Assembly (NCBI GenBank): GCA_023245895.1
Contig: JAHFJJ010000003.1
Location: 11,343-75,342, forward strand
Direction: 5' to 3'
Source: Candidatus Doudnabacteria bacterium
Lineage (GTDB): Bacteria > Patescibacteriota > Doudnabacteria > UBA920
Length of the DNA: 64,000 bases
Below the pieces are notes generated by a model. That model searched no databases, had not been told where the DNA came from, and worked only from the letters and a program-made list of their open reading frames with translations. Positions 3,450 to 28,488 of this stretch are shown here, in pieces. A program made the position numbers and the translations under genes. The first letter of the stretch is position 1; each line of letters begins with the position of its first letter.

Positions 3450-4619
3450 ATGAATCCAATTGAAGAATTACTAACCAGAGGCGTAGAGGAAGTAATAGAC
3501 AAGGCTCATTTAGAGTCTTTATTAAAGTCTAAAAAAAAGCTTAGGATAAAACTCGGCATAGACCCAACTTCCCCCAATATCCATATTGGCAGGGCGGTTG
3601 CTTTGTGGAAACTTCGGGCGTTCCAAGAGCTTGGGCACCAGGTAATTTTTATTGTAGGCGACTTTACAGGGTTAATTGGCGATACCGCGGACAAAGATAG
3701 TGAGCGGCCAATGTTAAGCGAAGTCGAAATAAAGACAAATTTAAGAACTTACTTCAAGCAGGCCTTTAAAATTTTAGATCCTAAAAAAACAGAAACCCAT
3801 TATAATTCCAAGTGGCTGAAAAAATTAGGTTTTTTAGAAATCGGTAAAATGGCCAACTTATTTGGGCTCCACGAATTTGAATCCAGGGAGAACATTGCCA
3901 AGCGTATGAAAGCAGGTAAGAGAGTTTCTTTGCGCGAATTGCTCTACCCCATAATGCAGGGCTACGATTCAGTTGCCATAAAGGCAGATGTGGAACTTGG
4001 CGGAACGGACCAGCGCTTTAATTTTTTGGCAGGCAGGACTATTCAGCCGGCTTATGGACAACAGGGCCAGGACATTATAACCTTACAGCTTATGGAAGGC
4101 ACGGACGGCCGTAAAATGTCTTCTTCCTGGGGTAATGTAATTAACATTACGGACGAGCCTAACGACATGTTCGGCAAGGTAATGTCTATTACAGATGAGC
4201 TAATAAAAAAATATTTTGTGCTGGCAACTAGGGTGGATATTACGGAAATTGATGAAATTATGAAATTGCCGAACCCGCGTGACCAAAAAATTATCTTAGC
4301 CGAAAAATTAACAGGTCTTTACCATGGCGACAAAAAAGCTGCCGGCGCAAAGGAAGCTTTTATTTCTCAATTCAGTAAGGGTGAACTGCCGGAAGACATT
4401 GAAATTAAATTTTTGCCTTCAGGCTTCATACCAACAGTTTCAGTGACGACATCCTTTTTGGTTGGTATTAGTAAATCAGAGGCTAAGAGGCTGATGGATC
4501 AAGGTGGTTTAAAGATAGATTCTAAAGTGGTTAAGGAAGATAAAATAATCGAAGATATAGAGAAAGAGCATTTGCTTCAGGCAGGAAAAAGAAGATTTTT
4601 TAAATTCAAAAGAAAATAG
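3450..4619 (+). CDS. tyrS: Tyrosine--tRNA ligase (class I aaRS with C-terminal S4 domain)
   Basis: HIGH-type motif (PNIHIGRA), GGTDQ motif, KMSSS (KMSKS variant), C-terminal S4-like RNA-binding region. Confidence 0.8.
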   Translation: MNPIEELLTRGVEEVIDKAHLESLLKSKKKLRIKLGIDPTSPNIHIGRAVALWKLRAFQELGHQVIFIVGDFTGLIGDTADKDSERPMLSEVEIKTNLRTYFKQAFKILDPKKTETHYNSKWLKKLGFLEIGKMANLFGLHEFESRENIAKRMKAGKRVSLRELLYPIMQGYDSVAIKADVELGGTDQRFNFLAGRTIQPAYGQQGQDIITLQLMEGTDGRKMSSSWGNVINITDEPNDMFGKVMSITDELIKKYFVLATRVDITEIDEIMKLPNPRDQKIILAEKLTGLYHGDKKAAGAKEAFISQFSKGELPEDIEIKFLPSGFIPTVSVTTSFLVGISKSEAKRLMDQGGLKIDSKVVKEDKIIEDIEKEHLLQAGKRRFFKFKRK

Positions 4620-4627
4620 CAAACATA

Positions 4628-4660
4628 AAACCCCCTCGCTTATGAGGGGGTTTTAATTCA
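4628..4660 (+). terminator. Rho-independent terminator after tyrS
   Basis: aaaaccccctcgcttatgagggggtttt hairpin with flanking A/T runs. Confidence 0.6.
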
Positions 4661-4902
4661 GCGTCTGATCAGCGTTATTATCCGCGAGTAATCGGCGGCT
4701 GTTACATTGCGGCATTCATACCTTCGCCGCCGTCTTTGCCATCTTCGTCGTCTGTAGCAGGGGCATCAGTTGCAGGGGCGTCGGCCGTTCCGCCGTCTGC
4801 GCCCATGCCGTCTTCGTCGTCAAAAAACATATATTTTATTTTTTAATGGTAAGCCTAAAAACTTATAAAAATTATATCAAGGGATATTTATAATGTCTAG
4901 CG

Positions 4903-4954
4903 TAGCGTGCCCATTTATGGGCGTCCTCATATCGCCGATAAATCGGCACGCTAC
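4903..4954. repeat. Family C ~52-bp structured palindromic repeat, copy 1 (outer stem gtagcgtgcc/ggcacgctac, inner hairpins gcccatttatgggc and gccgataaatcggc)
   Basis: Near-identical copies at 6151-6203 and, inverted, at 47428-47480. Confidence 0.8.
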
Positions 4955-5433
4955 ATCTTATATTTAGTAAAATAATGTCCGGCACACAGCGCAATGGCTA
5001 TTGCATCTGCCGCGTCGTCGGGTTTGGGAGGTGTTTTGAGCTTAAAAGTTTGCTGTACTACATATTGCACCTGTTTTTTTTCGGCCTTGCCATAGCCGCA
5101 AATAAAATTTTTAACTTGCAGGGGCGTGAATTCAAAAATAGGCAATTTATTTTTTTGGCAAACAAGCAGGGCTACTCCCCTGGCTTGGGACACAGTCATT
5201 ACGGTTTTTTGGTTGGTGGTTAAAAAAAGTTTTTCTACTCCCACAGCTTCGGGCTTGTATTTTTTTATCAGCTGATTAACATCTGCCGCTAAAATTTCCA
5301 AGCGTTCCGCGTCTGATAATTTTTTGTCAGTTGATATAACCCCAAAGTCAACCAGCTCCGGTTGGGTTTTTGTCTGCTTGATAATGCCGAATCCGGTTGT
5401 GGCGGTTCCGGGATCTATGCCGAGTATTATCAT
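4951..5433 (-). CDS. ruvC: Crossover junction endodeoxyribonuclease RuvC
   Basis: MIILGIDPGTATTGFGII... RNase H-fold RuvC N-terminus, ~160 aa. Confidence 0.85.
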   Translation of the reverse strand: MIILGIDPGTATTGFGIIKQTKTQPELVDFGVISTDKKLSDAERLEILAADVNQLIKKYKPEAVGVEKLFLTTNQKTVMTVSQARGVALLVCQKNKLPIFEFTPLQVKNFICGYGKAEKKQVQYVVQQTFKLKTPPKPDDAADAIAIALCAGHYFTKYKM

Positions 5434-6146
5434 AAGTTTGCCGATGTATGTACCGCTATTACATCTTCATCATTTTCCAATTCCGCGAATAAAGCGTCTA
5501 CTTTGGGTTTTTGTTCTTCTGTTAAGTCCGTTCCCTGTGAAGACTCTTTAATTACGTCTGCCTGGGCTATTTTGGCCCCAGCAGAGAGCAGGGCCTGTTT
5601 AATTTTATTTAAATCTTGCGGCTTGGTGTAGACTTCAAGCCCTTCTGCTGATTCACGCACGTCGTCAGCTCCGACATCAATCGCAGCCATTTCTATCGCG
5701 GGTAAATTACTATCGCGCTCAACTAAAATTTGCCCTTTAGTGTTAAATTGCCAGGCGACGCTCCCCTGCGCGCCTATGTTGCCGCCGTGCTCAGAAAATA
5801 TTTTGCGAATGTTATTAAATGTGCGGTTGCTGTTGTCGGTTATGGCTTCTATTAAAAAAGCTGTTGCAAAAGGTCCGTAGCCTTCGTATACGACTTCTTT
5901 AATGCCCGCGCCTTTTTCGCCCAGGGCAGACTTAATTGCCCGCTCAATGTTGTCATTGGGCATGCCTTGGTCTTTGGCGTAAACTATGGCGCTATTTAAC
6001 CTAAAGTTGGAAGAGGGGTCTCCGCTACCGCCTTCTTTTACGGCAATGGAAATTTTTTTGCTTAACTTGGAAAACAGCGCTCCCCGTTTTTGGTCAAGGA
6101 CGCCTTTGGTGCGTTTAATTTGTGACCATTTGCTGTGACCGCTCAT
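5430..6146 (-). CDS. yebC: YebC/PmpR family DNA-binding transcriptional regulator
   Basis: MSGHSKWSQIKRTKGVLDQKRGALFSKL... canonical YebC N-terminus. 4-bp overlap with ruvC start. Confidence 0.85.
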   Translation of the reverse strand: MSGHSKWSQIKRTKGVLDQKRGALFSKLSKKISIAVKEGGSGDPSSNFRLNSAIVYAKDQGMPNDNIERAIKSALGEKGAGIKEVVYEGYGPFATAFLIEAITDNSNRTFNNIRKIFSEHGGNIGAQGSVAWQFNTKGQILVERDSNLPAIEMAAIDVGADDVRESAEGLEVYTKPQDLNKIKQALLSAGAKIAQADVIKESSQGTDLTEEQKPKVDALFAELENDEDVIAVHTSANL

Positions 6147-23633: not shown

Positions 23634-25004
23634 CTAGTTGGTTAGGGGTGCAGGCTGTGGGGCTGTTGAGGCCGGGTCCATACCTGATTCCGTCATAATA
23701 TGCGGCCCGGAAGAGTAGCCTCCGGTGTTTCTGCCCAGACAAAAGGCCAGGTCGTATTGGTCTGTATTTAAAAGGCTGTAAGTGTAGGTATTTTCGGCCG
23801 TCGTGCAGGTGCCGTCAGCGGGCTCGGGCGCTGTGGGAAGCTGTTCTATATATTTGGGGGTAAGGCCGGATAAGTTTTCCGGATAAGCATTGTTGTCGTT
23901 GAAATAAAGTTCAAGCACGGAGCTAACTTGCCTGACATCTGCCAACCTTTGGGCATCGCGCGATGTTGACCGCGCGGAGTTAAGCGCCAGCAAGACCACG
24001 GACGCGATTAGTCCGCCAATAACAATTATGCCGCCAATTCCGCCCCAAATTGCCCAGCCCGTAATAGCCCCAATATACTTTCCGCCATCAGCGGCGGGTG
24101 CGGAATTTTTAACCTGCTTATAGAGCGTGTAAGAGTATGACAGCTGGAAGTAAGCGTAGAAGAATTGCCAGATGAATAAAACAATCCTTAAAAATATATT
24201 CACTCCCCAATTGCGGTTAAAAGCAAGCACGGCCTGCAGGACCATTGCCGGCACTATGTAAATTAAGTTTAGCAAAACTATCCTGCCGAAAACTTTCCAC
24301 CAGCGGCCGGCTACATAGGCTTTGCTTTGGGCAAGGGCGGCGCGGCCTTTTTTGCCTTCCGCAACCATTATCATTGGCGCAAAACAGTACCAGACCATAA
24401 AAATTATGCCCGGGATTATCAACAGCACAAACCCGCCTAGTGCTACAAGTTGAGTCAAAAGCCCAACCACAAGGAAACTGCCTATTAGCGGCCGCGCGCG
24501 TTTTAAGTTTTCTTTTATCCCGGTATTTTCATCGGCGTCCCTTAAGGCGGTAAAATAAGCAGTGGCTACCCAGAATATAGCGTAAAAAATAGCCACAACC
24601 CCAAGTACTGCAAAAATCAACAGCAGTATATTGGAAGCAATAGAACTGAATTTATGGACAATAAACCAGACAGTACCGGCAACAATAGAAAATGCCACCA
24701 GGCCTAAAATAGGCAAGAGGCCGGAGACAACCATAACTAAGATTCTTTTCTTCATCAATTCAAAGCTGTCTGAAAAAAGTCTGCCAATTTTGGGAAGCTC
24801 GGTACTCACCGGGCCGCTTACTGGCATAGGCACTCCTGATGCCGCGTGGGCAAAGCCTTCTTCCACGTCGGCCTGATGCCAGCCCTGGGCCAGCAAAGTG
24901 GAAGTTATCTGCTCTTTGCTGTGGCCCATCTGCTGTTGGTGCTTTATATAATCTATTAACTGTTGCGAGACCATAAATTTTTGTTTCCTTGGGCTTTTAC
25001 CCAA
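23634..25004 (-). CDS. Polytopic membrane protein with C-terminal type IV pilin/pseudopilin-like segment
   Basis: Several TM helices, then GGLIASVVLLALNSARSTSRDAQRLADVRQV. This resembles the mature N-terminal helix of type IV pilins but is internal and lacks the G|FTLIE processing site. Confidence 0.4.
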   Translation of the reverse strand: MGKSPRKQKFMVSQQLIDYIKHQQQMGHSKEQITSTLLAQGWHQADVEEGFAHAASGVPMPVSGPVSTELPKIGRLFSDSFELMKKRILVMVVSGLLPILGLVAFSIVAGTVWFIVHKFSSIASNILLLIFAVLGVVAIFYAIFWVATAYFTALRDADENTGIKENLKRARPLIGSFLVVGLLTQLVALGGFVLLIIPGIIFMVWYCFAPMIMVAEGKKGRAALAQSKAYVAGRWWKVFGRIVLLNLIYIVPAMVLQAVLAFNRNWGVNIFLRIVLFIWQFFYAYFQLSYSYTLYKQVKNSAPAADGGKYIGAITGWAIWGGIGGIIVIGGLIASVVLLALNSARSTSRDAQRLADVRQVSSVLELYFNDNNAYPENLSGLTPKYIEQLPTAPEPADGTCTTAENTYTYSLLNTDQYDLAFCLGRNTGGYSSGPHIMTESGMDPASTAPQPAPLTN

Positions 25005-25191
25005 TTTAGATAATCGTACTCTTATAGTTTAGCGGGATTTTTTAAAAAAGCAAACCCTAGCCTTATTTCAAACAAAAAACACCTGCGATTAAGAGATGTT
25101 TTTTGTGGAGCGGCTAACCCCAGTAGAAGCCCTCGGATGCACTCGTGCTTTACGGGGCGCAGGGGGAAAAGTTCCCTTACCTTAATCAAGC

Positions 25192-25222
25192 AAAAAGCCT
25201 CCACTTCATGTGGAGGCTTTTT
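25192..25222 (-). terminator. Rho-independent terminator after tRNA-Gly
   Basis: aaaaagcctccacttcatgtggaggcttttt perfect hairpin. Confidence 0.6.
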
Positions 25223-25225
25223 GCT

Positions 25226-25299
25226 TGGAGCGGCTAAGGGGAATTGAACCCCTGTCCATACCTTGGCAAGGTATTGTACTACCGTTGTACGATAGCCGC
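25226..25299 (-). tRNA. tRNA-Gly (anticodon GCC), encoded CCA
   Basis: Acceptor gcggcta/tagccgc, anticodon loop ttGCCaa, T-arm agggg-ttcaatt-cccct. Confidence 0.8.
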
Positions 25300-25429
25300 G
25301 CGTCGCAACTTGCTCCGGGCTTTCGGAATCAGCTAAGGCTAATTCCTCAGACCCTCCGCAGTTTCTCCTTTTCCCAAAAATCCCTTTGAGATTGCGTGGT
25401 TGGATTTTTGGGAACCCTGTAAGAAATTT

Positions 25430-25505
25430 TGGTGCCGGACCCCAGAGTCGAACTGGGCACGCCTGCCTCTTCAGGGCAGCGCTCTAACCGCTGAGCTAGC
25501 CCGGC
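25430..25505 (-). tRNA. tRNA-Phe (anticodon GAA), encoded CCA
   Basis: Acceptor gccgggc/gtccggc (one G-U), D-arm gctcagcggttagagc, anticodon stem ctgcc/ggcag, loop ctGAAga, T-arm cccag-ttcgact-ctggg. Confidence 0.8.
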
Positions 25506-26215
25506 ACAACTTTTGTTAATCTGAAGCTTCTTAGCTCAGGAAGACGAAGTTTTATTCTAGAACCAAAATCAATAGCGTTTTTGATTTTATCATGTTTTCT
25601 TTTTAAATACAATACTTCGTCTTTATAATACATAGCCTTAAAAAGGCTTACGCTATCCCCTTTTACATACTGCAATCCATATACTCCTGCGCCTCCGTGA
25701 TTTCTCAAAAGTCCTTTCACACCATAGAGTGTGGTTAGTCTTTTTTGCAACCATGCCAGAAAGTCTTTACTCGCAGAATAAAAGAAAATCTTGTAGCCAA
25801 AGCTGTTTGGCCAGCGTTTGTCCCAAAAAATATGGAAAGAGCCGTTTCCGTCAAATAAACCCCTTAAAAAGTCGGCAAAGTATTCATTTGGAACTAATAC
25901 TTGCTTAATAGTTTTGGACTTGGCGGATGTTAATCCTAAGGAGTTTAAAAATTTGTAGAAGTTTTTGTCCCCAAAGTCAATACGGAAATATTTTTTCTCT
26001 GTTTCCCCGCCCCTGGCGTACCTTCCGATTTTGTTGTTTAAAGAAAGAGCTTGTTTAAAGTTATTGACCATCTCTTCTTCTTTGGAACAAAAATTTATAT
26101 GTCTGCCGTCAGAATGTAAACTGCCATCGGAAGCAATTAAGCCAATTGCATAAGCAAGATTACATGACCATCCAGTTTTTACTTTATGTTTTAACTGGCC
26201 TCCGCGAGTTTGCAT
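25496..26215 (-). CDS. LAGLIDADG family homing endonuclease (two-motif, single-chain)
   Basis: Motif 1 LAYAIGLIASDGSL and motif 2 FLRGLFDGNGSF ~100 aa apart, 239 aa. Lies between tRNA-Val and tRNA-Phe. The last 10 nt overlap the 5' end of tRNA-Phe. Confidence 0.8.
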   Translation of the reverse strand: MQTRGGQLKHKVKTGWSCNLAYAIGLIASDGSLHSDGRHINFCSKEEEMVNNFKQALSLNNKIGRYARGGETEKKYFRIDFGDKNFYKFLNSLGLTSAKSKTIKQVLVPNEYFADFLRGLFDGNGSFHIFWDKRWPNSFGYKIFFYSASKDFLAWLQKRLTTLYGVKGLLRNHGGAGVYGLQYVKGDSVSLFKAMYYKDEVLYLKRKHDKIKNAIDFGSRIKLRLPELRSFRLTKVVPG

Positions 26216-26234
26216 AAATTTTTATTTTACACCG

Positions 26235-26309
26235 TGGTGGGCAATGTAGGGATTGAACCTACGGCCTACCCGGTGTAAACGGGTCGCTCTACCACTGAGC
26301 TAATTGCCC
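26235..26309 (-). tRNA. tRNA-Val (anticodon UAC), encoded CCA
   Basis: Acceptor gggcaat/attgccc, D-arm gctcagtggtagagc, anticodon loop ttTACac, T-arm gtagg-ttcaatc-cctac. Confidence 0.8.
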
Positions 26310-26453
26310 ATCATCAAATAACTTGCCAAGATAATATATCAAAATAATGCCTTTTTGGCAAGCCCGGTAATACAACTTTTAATATTTTTTAGCTGTATTA
26401 AAAATAAAAAATTTCGAACCTTTTCTGTAAGTAAAATTTAGTAATCAAAAAAA

Positions 26454-26768
26454 TTAAAAGTTGATATACCGGGCAAGAGTTTCGGAGAGCGTAAGAAACG
26501 CATTTATATCATCTTCCGGAGAAGACTTGCATCTTGCCTCGGCACCGCAATTTTGACATTGGTGGAGTATGTGGTAAATTCCTTTTTCCAAATCCAAACC
26601 CACGGGTTCCATTAAGCCGCCGCACGCCTCGGCGCGGTCGCCGGGATAGACATCCACATGTTTGCTCCACAGGCACTTGGGACAATGGTTGGTATAGCCG
26701 TTGCCTTTAACTTTTTTGCCGCAGTGGCCGCAGGTGAAATCTTCAATTGTCCTTATAAATTTTTTCAT
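26454..26768 (-). CDS. RNHCP domain-containing zinc-ribbon protein
   Basis: CGHCGKK...YTNHCPKC...CQNCG; RNHCP signature and cysteine pairs. Confidence 0.6.
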   Translation of the reverse strand: MKKFIRTIEDFTCGHCGKKVKGNGYTNHCPKCLWSKHVDVYPGDRAEACGGLMEPVGLDLEKGIYHILHQCQNCGAEARCKSSPEDDINAFLTLSETLARYINF

Positions 26769-26771
26769 AAC

Positions 26772-26832
26772 TTTACGAATACTAACGGGTACGAACGTAC
26801 GAATTCGTAAGTTCGTAAAGATTCGTACTTCG
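26772..26832. repeat. Cluster of TTCGTA/TACGAA short inverted and direct repeats
   Basis: acgggtacgaacgtacgaattcgtaagttcgtaaagattcgtacttcgtaaaat, read directly. Confidence 0.5.
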
Positions 26833-26930
26833 TAAAATCTATATTAGCACAATCTCTAGAATTTTGTTATTATAGAGGCAGAATTGGTTGGGCGGATTGG
26901 ATTCTCAAATCTTGTCAATTTTGCTCAATC

Positions 26931-27839
26931 ATGGTCAATCTTGTCAATAATTCTATGCCCCAAGCCATCCATTTGGTTTCCCCTAACTTTGCCGATATTT
27001 TTGAACCGAATGTTGAAATTGGCAAGTTCCCCGACGGCGACAGTCATGTTAGGATTCCGCTAATTAACGAATGCAAAGGCCAGGAAGTTATTGTTTTCCA
27101 TAGGCTTTACCCCAAGCAGAACACCTCCCTGGTGAGTCTGCTTTTAATTTTGGATTCTTTAAGGGACATTGGCGCGCAAAAAATTACCGTGGTCGCGCCT
27201 TACCTCCCCTACTCCAGGCAGGACAAGAAAAAGTTAAACGGCGAAGTCGCCAGTGCTTTCGTGGTTTGTAATTTGCTGGCGAGGGCCGGCTGCGACAAGC
27301 TGGTAGTTTTTGACTGTCATTTTTTAAAAAAAGAAGGACCGGCCAAGTTTGGCGAACTGCAAATAGAAAATATTTCCATGGGCAGGGAACTGGCCGCCTA
27401 TGCCATGAAGGAAAGTTTTGGCGGAGAGGCTTGTGAAGTAATTTCCCCGGACATGGGCGCCAACTATTTGGTTACGGACCACGGCGGCAAGTCTTACAGC
27501 AAAGTCCGCAAAGAATACGAAGGCGGCAAAATCCATTACCGCGACGTGGGGGAAATGAGCGGCGACTTTGACGTTTCGGGCAAGAACGTTTTAATTTTAG
27601 ACGACATGATAAGCACGGGCGGTACCATGATCCGCGCGCTGGAAAAGCTAACTGAAGCCGGCGCCAAAAAAATTTGCTGCGCGGCCACCCACGGCTTGTT
27701 TTTATACAATTGCATAGACAAAATTAGGAAGCTTACCGACTGCGTCTATTCCACGGACACAATACAAAACCCCCACAGCGCTGTTTCCATTGCGGAAAAG
27801 CTGGTTGCAATTACCGAGCAGAACCTTAAGTTATTTTAA
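26931..27839 (+). CDS. prs: Ribose-phosphate pyrophosphokinase (PRPP synthetase family)
   Basis: PRPP synthetase N-domain (FPDGDSHVRIP) and PRPP-binding loop (LILDDMISTGGT). Start may instead be the ATG at 26955. Confidence 0.7.
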   Translation: MVNLVNNSMPQAIHLVSPNFADIFEPNVEIGKFPDGDSHVRIPLINECKGQEVIVFHRLYPKQNTSLVSLLLILDSLRDIGAQKITVVAPYLPYSRQDKKKLNGEVASAFVVCNLLARAGCDKLVVFDCHFLKKEGPAKFGELQIENISMGRELAAYAMKESFGGEACEVISPDMGANYLVTDHGGKSYSKVRKEYEGGKIHYRDVGEMSGDFDVSGKNVLILDDMISTGGTMIRALEKLTEAGAKKICCAATHGLFLYNCIDKIRKLTDCVYSTDTIQNPHSAVSIAEKLVAITEQNLKLF

Positions 27840-27840
27840 T

Positions 27841-28488
27841 ATGGCGGATTATCAAAGGGAAGTCGCGAAAAGTTTGCTGAAAATCGGCGCGGTTGGGTTT
27901 AAGCCCAAAGAGCCGGTTACTTTTAAATCCGGTATTGTTTCCCCAGTCTATGTAGATAACAGAAGATTTCCTTTTCATCCGGAAGAATGGCGGATAGTAA
28001 TTGAGGGGTTTAAGGCATTAATTGAGCGCGATAATATCTCGGCTGATATTATAGCGGGCGTGGAAGCGGCAGGTATACCCCACAGCGCGGCTTTGGGGTT
28101 TTTTATGCAAAAACCCTCGGTCTTTGTACGCAAAGAAGTTAAAGGTTACGGACTAAACAAAAGGGTTGAAGGCGGAGATATTTCAGGCAAAAAAGTTTTA
28201 TTAATAGAAGACTTGGTTTCCACAGGCTCCAGCAGCTTATCTGTGGTTGAAGCAATGAGAAATGAAGGCGGAGTCGTTGAAGATTTGATAATAATAGTAA
28301 CCTACGGCTTTAAGGAATCGGCGGAAGCTTTTGAAAAAGCTAAAATAAACTTGCATACCCTTACATCTTTCCCGATAATTTTAGACGAAGCATTGGCCAT
28401 GAATAAATTAACAGGTGATGAAAAAGCATCGGTGGAAGATTGGCTACAGGAGCCTCACGGTTGGGCGGCCAGGAATAATTTTAAATAA
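27841..28488 (+). CDS. pyrE: Orotate phosphoribosyltransferase
   Basis: PRTase type I motif VLLIEDLVSTGSS. N-terminal MADYQREVAKSLLKIGAV typical of OPRTase. The ORF-track start at 27790 overlaps prs, so the ATG at 27841 is preferred. Confidence 0.7.
   Translation: MADYQREVAKSLLKIGAVGFKPKEPVTFKSGIVSPVYVDNRRFPFHPEEWRIVIEGFKALIERDNISADIIAGVEAAGIPHSAALGFFMQKPSVFVRKEVKGYGLNKRVEGGDISGKKVLLIEDLVSTGSSSLSVVEAMRNEGGVVEDLIIIVTYGFKESAEAFEKAKINLHTLTSFPIILDEALAMNKLTGDEKASVEDWLQEPHGWAARNNFK

Follow-up and report, generated by a model that had tools for sequence, protein, structure and literature searches.

A free-standing LAGLIDADG endonuclease gene abutting tRNA-Phe in a Candidatus Doudnabacteria genome and its tRNA-linked relatives in Patescibacteria

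A 64-kb stretch of a Candidatus Doudnabacteria bacterium genome (assembly GCA_023245895.1, contig JAHFJJ010000003.1, positions 11,343 to 75,342; hereafter the window, meaning all 64,000 nucleotides) contains an open reading frame (ORF) of 239 amino acids with LAGLIDADG motifs between the genes for tRNA-Val(TAC) and tRNA-Phe(GAA). We consider it likely that this ORF is a selfish, free-standing homing endonuclease gene from a large Patescibacteria family that homes to the 5' end of a particular tRNA gene, in this case tRNA-Phe(GAA). A sequence-only reading had already placed the ORF between the two tRNA genes and noted a 10-nt overlap with tRNA-Phe; both descriptions are accurate, except that the ATG lies 19 nt rather than 20 nt past tRNA-Val. 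The ORF is the sole long one between the two tRNA genes, has its own ATG and leaves both flanking tRNAs complete. Its final 10 nt (25496-25505) are the first 10 nt of tRNA-Phe, so that its stop codon TAG consists of U8-A9-G10 of the tRNA (25496-25498), and it lacks a separate stop before the tRNA begins. The ORF has 37% GC, compared with 44.6% for the window.

26235-26309, minus strand: tRNA-Val(TAC), called by ARAGORN and Rfam (73.6 bits); upstream neighbour in this lineage only
26216-26234, minus strand: 19-nt spacer CGGTGTAAAATAAAAATTT between tRNA-Val and the ORF; original Val-Phe spacer, kept 5' of the insertion
25496-26215, minus strand: free-standing LAGLIDADG homing endonuclease gene, 239 amino acids, two-domain monomer type
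25430-25505, minus strand: tRNA-Phe(GAA), docking partner of the endonuclease gene, called by ARAGORN and Rfam

Linkage of the gene family to tRNA-Phe or tRNA-Leu

Database searches with the window protein returned 1167 relatives at E-values up to 0.001, and those with a named source come from Patescibacteria, the ultra-small bacteria also known as the candidate phyla radiation (CPR). The alignment gave the first clue to the linkage, as many homologues end in AAVAQW, AAVAQR or VPG, which is the translated 5' end of a tRNA. The GTDB species genomes yielded 224 confirmed matches among 185,579 genomes, from which 80 loci were retrieved and tabulated for tRNAs, and a second, independent sample consisted of 80 metagenome loci. 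In the GTDB set, a tRNA-Phe or tRNA-Leu on the same strand abuts or overlaps the ORF end at every locus with sequence past the ORF; one apparent exception (L012) proved to be a tRNA-Phe with a group I intron that ARAGORN had missed. The metagenome set comprises 27 loci with tRNA-Phe, 46 with tRNA-Leu, 4 ended by a contig edge (at one of these, L102, the start of tRNA-Phe is still visible) and 3 apparent exceptions. Two of the latter (L111 and L112) again have an intron-containing tRNA-Phe, and the third (L136) is a truncated ORF beside tRNA-Leu(TAG).

The tRNA partner follows the protein. Homologues at least about 50% identical to the window protein always adjoin tRNA-Phe(GAA), and those with 39-49% identity always adjoin a tRNA-Leu, mostly with the anticodon GAG and also with TAG, CAG, AAG or CAA. 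A neighbour-joining tree of 73 ORFs separates 24 Phe-linked from 49 Leu-linked proteins, each set being a pure clade, and the five Leu(TAG) loci group together inside the Leu clade. Since what lies upstream changes from locus to locus (Val on either strand, Ala, Pro, Glu, His, Ile, Lys, Cys or none) and the downstream tRNA is fixed, the latter is the constant partner and tRNA-Val is incidental. The earlier suggestion of an element tied to a tRNA locus thus stands as far as a free-standing gene at a tRNA locus is concerned, but the partner is the tRNA-Phe 5' end (tRNA-Leu in the sister clade) and not the Val/Phe/Gly cluster.

The position of the ORF stop ranges from a few nt before the tRNA to 101 nt within it; at Phe loci the commonest stop is the U8-A9-G10 TAG also used in the window. 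Because ORFs occur in all three frames relative to the tRNA, they simply run on until the tRNA supplies a stop and have none of their own. Acceptor-stem mismatches were found in none of the 136 tRNAs adjoining an endonuclease gene, and these tRNAs look functional.

Several loci show additional features. At L026, L070 and L012 (six loci by tblastn), two family members lie within a few kb of each other, at tRNA-Leu(GAG) and tRNA-Phe; the Leu-side copy of L012 is deduced solely from the sequence upstream of the tRNA. Premature stops truncate the ORF at L027:2498-3019 (173 amino acids), at L038:2489-2737 (82 amino acids) and at L136 (stop at 1821), all with the tRNA still adjoining. These copies appear to be in decay, a phase that homing genes are expected to pass through. 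An invariant TTGACA, the -35 consensus, lies 8-14 nt before tRNA-Leu +1 in more than 20 loci of the Leu clade (e.g. L046, L062, L063, and L074). At the ORF end this hexamer encodes Leu-Thr with codons that are always identical, and the window protein has RLTK near its C-terminus. With a 17-nt spacer, TTGACA would pair with a -10-like TGAAAT or TGTAAT from tRNA positions 11-16, and it could act as a signal in the DNA instead of reflecting a constraint on the protein.

The protein, its distribution and the insertion boundaries

The two LAGLIDADG motifs reported from the sequence are both present in the translation. The Pfam profile hidden Markov model LAGLIDADG_3 supports the motif match in two stretches (E = 1.5e-10, 41.6 bits against a curated cut-off of 22.5), and the predicted fold agrees; a search of NCBIfam gave no family match for the ORF. 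An AlphaFold model built with 50 homologues (predicted local distance difference test score 92.5, predicted template modelling score 0.89) is confident and shows helix and beta-sheet elements repeated twice, as in two-domain LAGLIDADG enzymes. An archaeal intron enzyme, I-Tsp061I, gives the best match in the PDB by sequence and also by structure with Foldseek (E = 4.9e-11). Intein endonuclease domains, WhiA, I-DmoI, and I-AniI are further top structural matches, the best of which are monomeric LAGLIDADG enzymes.

26117-26158, minus strand: first LAGLIDADG motif LAYAIGLIASDGSL, residues 20-33, catalytic Asp30 present
25835-25870, minus strand: second LAGLIDADG motif FLRGLFDGNGSF, residues 116-127, reading FDGNG, with Asn124 at the catalytic position (AAC, 25844-25846)

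The position of Asn124 carries the catalytic Asp in I-CreI-type alignments. Asp30 is invariant among the 50 aligned homologues, and position 124 is Asp in at least 90% of them and in at least 108 of the 120 best homologues, with Asn in the window protein only. An acidic catalytic residue is thus present in one of the two motifs of the window copy and in both motifs in the family as a whole. As an identical protein is recorded in two further assemblies (three in all), Asn124 is not a read error. The window copy is probably inactive or a nickase, or has otherwise lost or reduced cleavage through this substitution, and is most likely a fixed copy whose ORF has stayed intact. Such a state fits either a copy late in the usual homing-gene cycle or a shift to a binding-only role.

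The sequence-only reading had proposed that relatives be compared for presence or absence of the gene. Relatives with the same synteny were found through the neighbouring RNHCP gene (RNHCP, then tRNA-Val). In L087, with an RNHCP 73% identical to that of the window, tRNA-Val is followed by a 36-nt spacer and an uninterrupted tRNA-Phe, i.e. an empty site. The endonuclease gene is also absent from L088/L089 (RNHCP 78% identical), L085/L086 (73%), and L084 (71%), all of which have an intron-containing tRNA-Phe; in L084, the tRNA-Val region is 100% identical to the window over 77 nt. The Val-ORF-Phe-Gly order, with the gene in place, recurs in L001, L002, and L090. The window and L001 share 73% identity in the endonuclease and 55% in RNHCP, and the relatives closer by RNHCP (71-78%) lack the gene. 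Presence and absence thus alternate at one defined site among relatives, empty sites included. A gene found in two fairly distant genomes and missing from at least four closer ones is the patchy pattern expected of a homing element. Repeated loss may also yield such a distribution; the relatedness of the genomes was gauged here by RNHCP identity. The dN/dS ratio between the window and L001 is about 0.07 with saturated synonymous sites, which indicates purifying selection on the protein during most of the divergence between the two. Universal conservation with purifying selection and no empty sites had been named as an outcome that would speak against a homing element; empty sites do exist, though selection is strong. 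Together with the patchy distribution and the better conservation of the endonuclease than of its host neighbour, they support the behaviour proposed for such an element.

Comparison with gene-less alleles also places the insertion boundary. The 19-nt spacer of the window resembles the Val-Phe spacers of L088 (CGATGTAAATAATATATAA) and L085 (GGTGTAATTTAAAAAATAAATACT), which lack the gene. The empty site of L084, the closest relative, reads TAAAAATTTAT/GCCGGG, the slash marking tRNA-Phe +1, and the 13-nt window sequence TAAAAATTTATGC is identical to this junction of leader and +1, after which the ORF continues. From this match it follows that the start codon consists of the last two leader bases and the former G+1 of the tRNA. 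The insertion would thus start about 2 nt into the old tRNA, with a complete tRNA following the ORF, and the inserted sequence would essentially be a bare ORF without its own promoter, terminator, or stop codon. L001 follows the same pattern, with the 8-nt sequence TATGCCTC, made up of TAT from the leader and tRNA positions 1-5, directly repeated at both ends. Terminal direct repeats were rejected as a general signature of insertion, as the window shares TGC alone and most loci have none. Separately, the Val-Phe spacer of L084 (L084:3586-3716) is 131 nt long, compared with about 20 nt, is bounded by the inverted repeat CTTCTTCGC ... GCGAAGAAG and contains repeated CTACGAAG-like units. It has the appearance of a short repeat element that was inserted there and has no relation to the endonuclease gene; a remnant of that gene was considered and rejected, as neither blastn nor translation revealed similarity.

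An origin of the ORF from a degenerated intron had been offered as an alternative, along with a search for group I intron structure around it. Rfam searches of positions 24000-28000 with E-values up to 1 returned the three tRNAs and weak chance matches, with no intron RNA and no RF00028, a model that readily detects the introns of relatives at 60-78 bits. These group I introns follow U33 in the anticodon loop of tRNA-Phe(GAA), are 233-265 nt long and ORF-less, and scored 60-78 bits in the four loci scanned. The genes containing them are missed by ARAGORN. They occur both with a 5' endonuclease gene (L012, L111, and L112) and without, and an intron at this 33/34 position of tRNA-Phe has already been listed for one Patescibacteria genome (PMC13011429). 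We rejected the degenerated-intron origin, given that no intron RNA surrounds the ORF and that the introns of relatives sit in the anticodon loop, are too short for an ORF of this size and can co-occur with the gene.

L084:3717-4013: intron-containing tRNA-Phe(GAA)
L085:3449-3770: intron-containing tRNA-Phe(GAA)
L088:1175-1495: intron-containing tRNA-Phe(GAA)
L012:3171-3460: intron-containing tRNA-Phe(GAA)
L111 and L112: intron-containing tRNA-Phe(GAA) just after the ORF

Expression, mode of insertion and alternative explanations

The remaining features of the operon indicate how the gene may be expressed.

26454-26768, minus strand: RNHCP gene, neighbouring gene
26333-26361, minus strand: promoter-like site with TTGCCA, 17 nt and a TG-extended TATATT (10 of 12 consensus positions plus TG; consensus match only)
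25226-25299, minus strand: tRNA-Gly(GCC), the final gene of the operon, called by ARAGORN and Rfam
25192-25222, minus strand: GC-rich hairpin and T-run right after tRNA-Gly, read from the sequence, inside the inverted repeat 25160-25204/25210-25254

The promoter-like site is likely the promoter of a tRNA-Val/endonuclease/tRNA-Phe/tRNA-Gly unit; a consensus scan within the ORF produced weak chance-level matches only. The hairpin is likely the operon terminator; an automatic terminator scan did not call it. With this anatomy, the ORF would be transcribed from the tRNA-Val promoter within a tRNA-Val/ORF/tRNA-Phe/tRNA-Gly precursor, and tRNA-Phe and tRNA-Gly would now depend on transcription through the ORF. 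Translation would end at the TAG formed by tRNA-Phe positions 8-10, and the RNase P cut at tRNA-Phe +1, required for the mature tRNA, would take this stop codon off the mRNA. For this reason, tRNA processing and full-length translation would compete, which is a testable prediction of the ORF/tRNA overlap, and the processed transcripts would be non-stop mRNAs that could hold nuclease levels low. By analogy with LAGLIDADG homing in general, the enzyme would recognise about 20 bp including the conserved 5' part of tRNA-Phe and cut the empty allele, and repair from the occupied allele, in which the site would be split or altered by the insertion, would copy the gene into the cut one. Enzymes of this type cut both strands of a specific target of about 20 bp and leave 4-nt 3' overhangs. 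Family members without a preceding tRNA have a TG-extended -10 box 6-8 nt before the ATG, which suggests leaderless mRNAs from the tRNA's own promoter or from one carried by the element.

Just upstream of the ORF, many loci carry a tRNA-like fragment that partially copies the 5' region of the same tRNA species. In the Leu clade, the fragment reads AATTGGTAGACGCTAT-nnn-CTTGAGG and corresponds to D-loop, D-stem, anticodon stem, and anticodon loop; this pattern occurs in 38 of 97 Leu-type upstream windows and 0 of 50 Phe-type ones, with a background of 35 per 1.16 Mb. The Phe-clade fragment, CTC(A/G)GTGGTAG, equals tRNA positions 11-22 (17 nt in L101), with its 3' end fixed at G22 and a variable 5' end. 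It is found in 14 of 50 Phe-type and 0 of 97 Leu-type upstream windows (background 3 per 1.16 Mb). Both patterns are clade-specific and strongly enriched. The window and L001 have a minimal fragment of 2-5 nt only. Fragments are 0.64 identical to the tRNA of their own locus, compared with 0.60 to the tRNAs of other loci. The absence of acceptor-stem mismatches lends no support to the hybrid tRNAs expected if 5' parts were imported, although this is a weak test. With regard to a possible immunity through D-loop changes, the canonical D-loop GGTAGAGC is present in 26 of 47 adjoining tRNA-Phe genes, a count to be read with few gene-less control alleles and with some loci misfiled by automatic labelling. 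An apparent tracking of the anticodon by the fragments of Leu(TAG) and Leu(CAG) loci was not relied on as evidence of a tRNA origin, as TTAGGTATAAT also occurs as a -10-like region in Leu(GAG) loci.

These fragments suggest an insertion inside the tRNA (at about 22/23 in Phe and 37/38 in Leu) with duplication of the 5' part. We tentatively entertain the possibility that the element enters the tRNA at about 22/23 (Phe) or in the anticodon loop (Leu), carries a replacement 5' part and rebuilds the tRNA downstream. The displaced fragment would then stay upstream as the left homology arm and perhaps as promoter or operator; the ORF would read into the rebuilt tRNA, and RNase P would strip the stop, tying nuclease dosage to tRNA processing. 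Self-immunity is the weak point here, as the rebuilt tRNA would hold the whole site. If true, such an insertion would be a third lifestyle, besides introns and inteins, for endonuclease genes in essential structural-RNA genes.

Other sequence elements were observed near the fragments and the adjoining tRNAs. About 45-60 nt before the ORF start at L029, L031, L043, and L044, a perfect DnaA box (TTATCCACA) stands immediately ahead of the tRNA-Leu-like fragment. At L012:3497-3600, just past tRNA-Phe, (T)TATCCACA boxes form a cluster. Upstream of the endonuclease gene at L019:2129-2215 are a 16-nt exact copy of tRNA-Phe 52-67, a terminator hairpin and an inverted copy of the tRNA 3' end.

Several points weigh against the tRNA 5' end as homing site of a selfish gene. 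The recognition site is deduced from where the gene is inserted and from the way protein clades correspond to tRNA types; a complete tRNA adjoins the gene, and a site wholly inside the tRNA would leave the host allele non-immune. The upstream 5' fragments are more complicated than a simple insertion at +1 would suggest. Homing would also need DNA exchange between Patescibacteria cells, the mode of which is hypothetical here. Finally, the long persistence of the gene (saturated dS, same locus in L001) under purifying selection would also fit a domesticated LAGLIDADG protein, which would serve the host's tRNA operon by binding DNA or RNA, in analogy to WhiA or LAGLIDADG maturases. Such a role would account for the strong purifying selection, for the same position in a relative with saturated synonymous sites and for an ORF that stays intact in three assemblies despite the loss of one catalytic Asp, and WhiA is among the structural matches. 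We nevertheless regard it as unlikely: the nearest syntenic relatives lack the gene entirely, the GTDB genomes contain so few confirmed matches (224 in 185,579), and more than 90% of the family retain both catalytic Asp residues, which is unexpected for a pure binding protein. Moreover, the match to Pfam LAGLIDADG_WhiA (17.7 bits) falls under the cut-off of 23.2, and the C-terminal helix-turn-helix domain is absent.

The ORF-less group I introns in the tRNA-Phe anticodon loop of close relatives, found together with an endonuclease gene in L012, L111, and L112, bring collaborative homing into consideration. Here the enzyme would cut intron-less tRNA-Phe at 33/34 and mobilise the neighbouring intron, or the gene would be an escaped intron ORF; F-CphI and the cyanophage psbA intron reportedly provide a precedent (Zeng, Bonocora and Shub 2009). 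Most tRNA-Phe genes linked to an endonuclease gene, including that of the window, are intron-less and so would be open to cutting by their own enzyme as uninterrupted targets, no introns were seen among the 90-odd tRNA-Leu genes in the sister clade, and Rfam detects no intron remnant around the ORF; we judge this explanation quite improbable. Least probable of all, in our view, is a mobile cassette in which the tRNA would travel as cargo of the nuclease gene and provide the recipient with a tRNA. Constant adjacency, with the ORF even overlapping the tRNA, would suit it, as would the analogy with T4 SegB, which spreads neighbouring tRNA genes (PMC2330249). Yet the tRNA-Phe of the window is near-identical to that of the gene-less L084, that of L001 differs though the endonucleases are 73% identical, only one tRNA-Phe is present in the window, and the downstream synteny (tRNA-Gly) is the host's own.

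Elements at tRNA-Gly and comparison with known systems

A duplicate of the tRNA-Gly 3' end had been read as a possible old insertion scar. The repeat is real, measuring 12 nt rather than 11 and starting at 25106 rather than at about 25124; its link to the endonuclease gene did not hold, with the repeat lying beyond the terminator.

25106-25117: second copy of the tRNA-Gly 3' end, TGGAGCGGCTAA, 12 nt, an exact repeat of the original at 25226-25237

The chance expectation for TGGAGCGGCTAA in the window, allowing up to 1 mismatch, is 0.30 matches. Another hairpin with a T-run comes before the copy past the operon terminator. The T-arm and acceptor end of tRNA-Gly are also mirrored in an imperfect inverted repeat of 45 nt (25160-25204 against 25210-25254, 76% complementary). 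At the tRNA-Gly of L084, the 3' end is overlapped by the gene for a large serine recombinase (4131-5630, minus strand). The repeat fits integration at the tRNA-Gly 3' end better than endonuclease insertion and is probably unrelated to the endonuclease gene; in this lineage, tRNA-Gly may be a hot spot for integration. The inverted fragment at L019 resembles that of tRNA-Gly in the window, and pieces of tRNA 3' ends around terminators may recur in these genomes.

Another ORF, of 230 amino acids, ends 5 nt before tRNA-Gly(GCC) at L085:3810-4502, L086:2739-3431, and L088:1569-1877. It has a weak N-terminal helix-turn-helix match in Pfam and a single LAGLIDADG-like string (LILGAGLYWGEGYK). The hhalign probability against the window protein is 0.5%, and the searches found no Pfam LAGLIDADG match and no PDB sequence match. 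It may belong to a further nuclease family, unrelated to the first, that also docks at the 5' end of a tRNA.

Free-standing LAGLIDADG genes are uncommon in bacterial chromosomes, and a family of more than 1000 protein clusters that sits, clade by clade, on the 5' end of one tRNA species is apparently undescribed. The literature on LAGLIDADG proteins in CPR, Patescibacteria, or Parcubacteria and on free-standing endonucleases at tRNAs, in a search that did not cover all journals, holds no description of the arrangement. If our interpretation is true, tRNA 5' ends join the known homing sites, and the gene would practise a very compact parasitism of an essential gene, borrowing both its promoter and its stop-codon nucleotides. 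The family would then also offer a natural set of enzymes with related but distinct specificities (Phe; Leu-GAG, -UAG, -AAG, and -CAG) for specificity studies, and the annotation of Patescibacteria genomes would be affected, since the ORFs overlap tRNA genes.

By analogy, the closest functional precedent is SegB of phage T4, a free-standing GIY-YIG enzyme encoded in the phage tRNA cluster that recognises the tRNA T-psi-C motif (PMC2330249). In both cases a free-standing nuclease gene lies among tRNA genes; the site of SegB holds a tRNA motif, and SegB spreads by cutting gene-less alleles. The two differ in that SegB is a phage-borne GIY-YIG enzyme, whereas the window family is LAGLIDADG and resides in cellular chromosomes. 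The T-psi-C motif is generic to many tRNAs, while each clade of the window family keeps to a single tRNA species and its 5' end, and an overlap of ORF and tRNA has not been reported for SegB.

Within the LAGLIDADG superfamily, CPR bacteria have LAGLIDADG genes in insertions of rRNA genes, with LAGLIDADG_3 only in 16S insertions (PMC11270868); the word 'tRNA' is absent from that paper, and endonuclease genes at tRNA 5' ends are not mentioned. These enzymes, like I-Tsp061I and I-DmoI, share the superfamily and the preference for conserved structural-RNA targets with the window protein, and those of CPR bacteria come from the same phylum. The enzymes of CPR rRNA insertions and archaeal rRNA introns are, however, encoded inside the RNA gene in a removable insertion, whereas the window gene lies outside the mature tRNA and has no intron RNA.

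Fungal mitochondria offer a further parallel, and in the Allomyces atp6 element (Paquin, Laforest and Lang 1994) a similar endonuclease gene is said to lie beside a duplicated gene end. Free-standing endonuclease genes occur in these organelles beside partial 3'-end duplications of cob and atp6 (PMC6279837). As in the tRNA-linked family, the ORF is located between a complete gene and a duplicated terminal fragment, may enter the gene and involves no splicing. The fungal elements concern protein-coding mitochondrial genes and 3' duplications, in contrast to bacterial tRNAs and 5' fragments here, the latter present in many members but not in the window copy. Finally, the group I introns of Patescibacteria tRNAs are mostly without endonuclease genes, and none carries a LAGLIDADG gene in Patescibacteria (PMC13011429). 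They share the phylum and the target genes with the endonuclease family, but they are RNA elements in the anticodon loop, whereas the window element is a protein gene that lies outside the tRNA.

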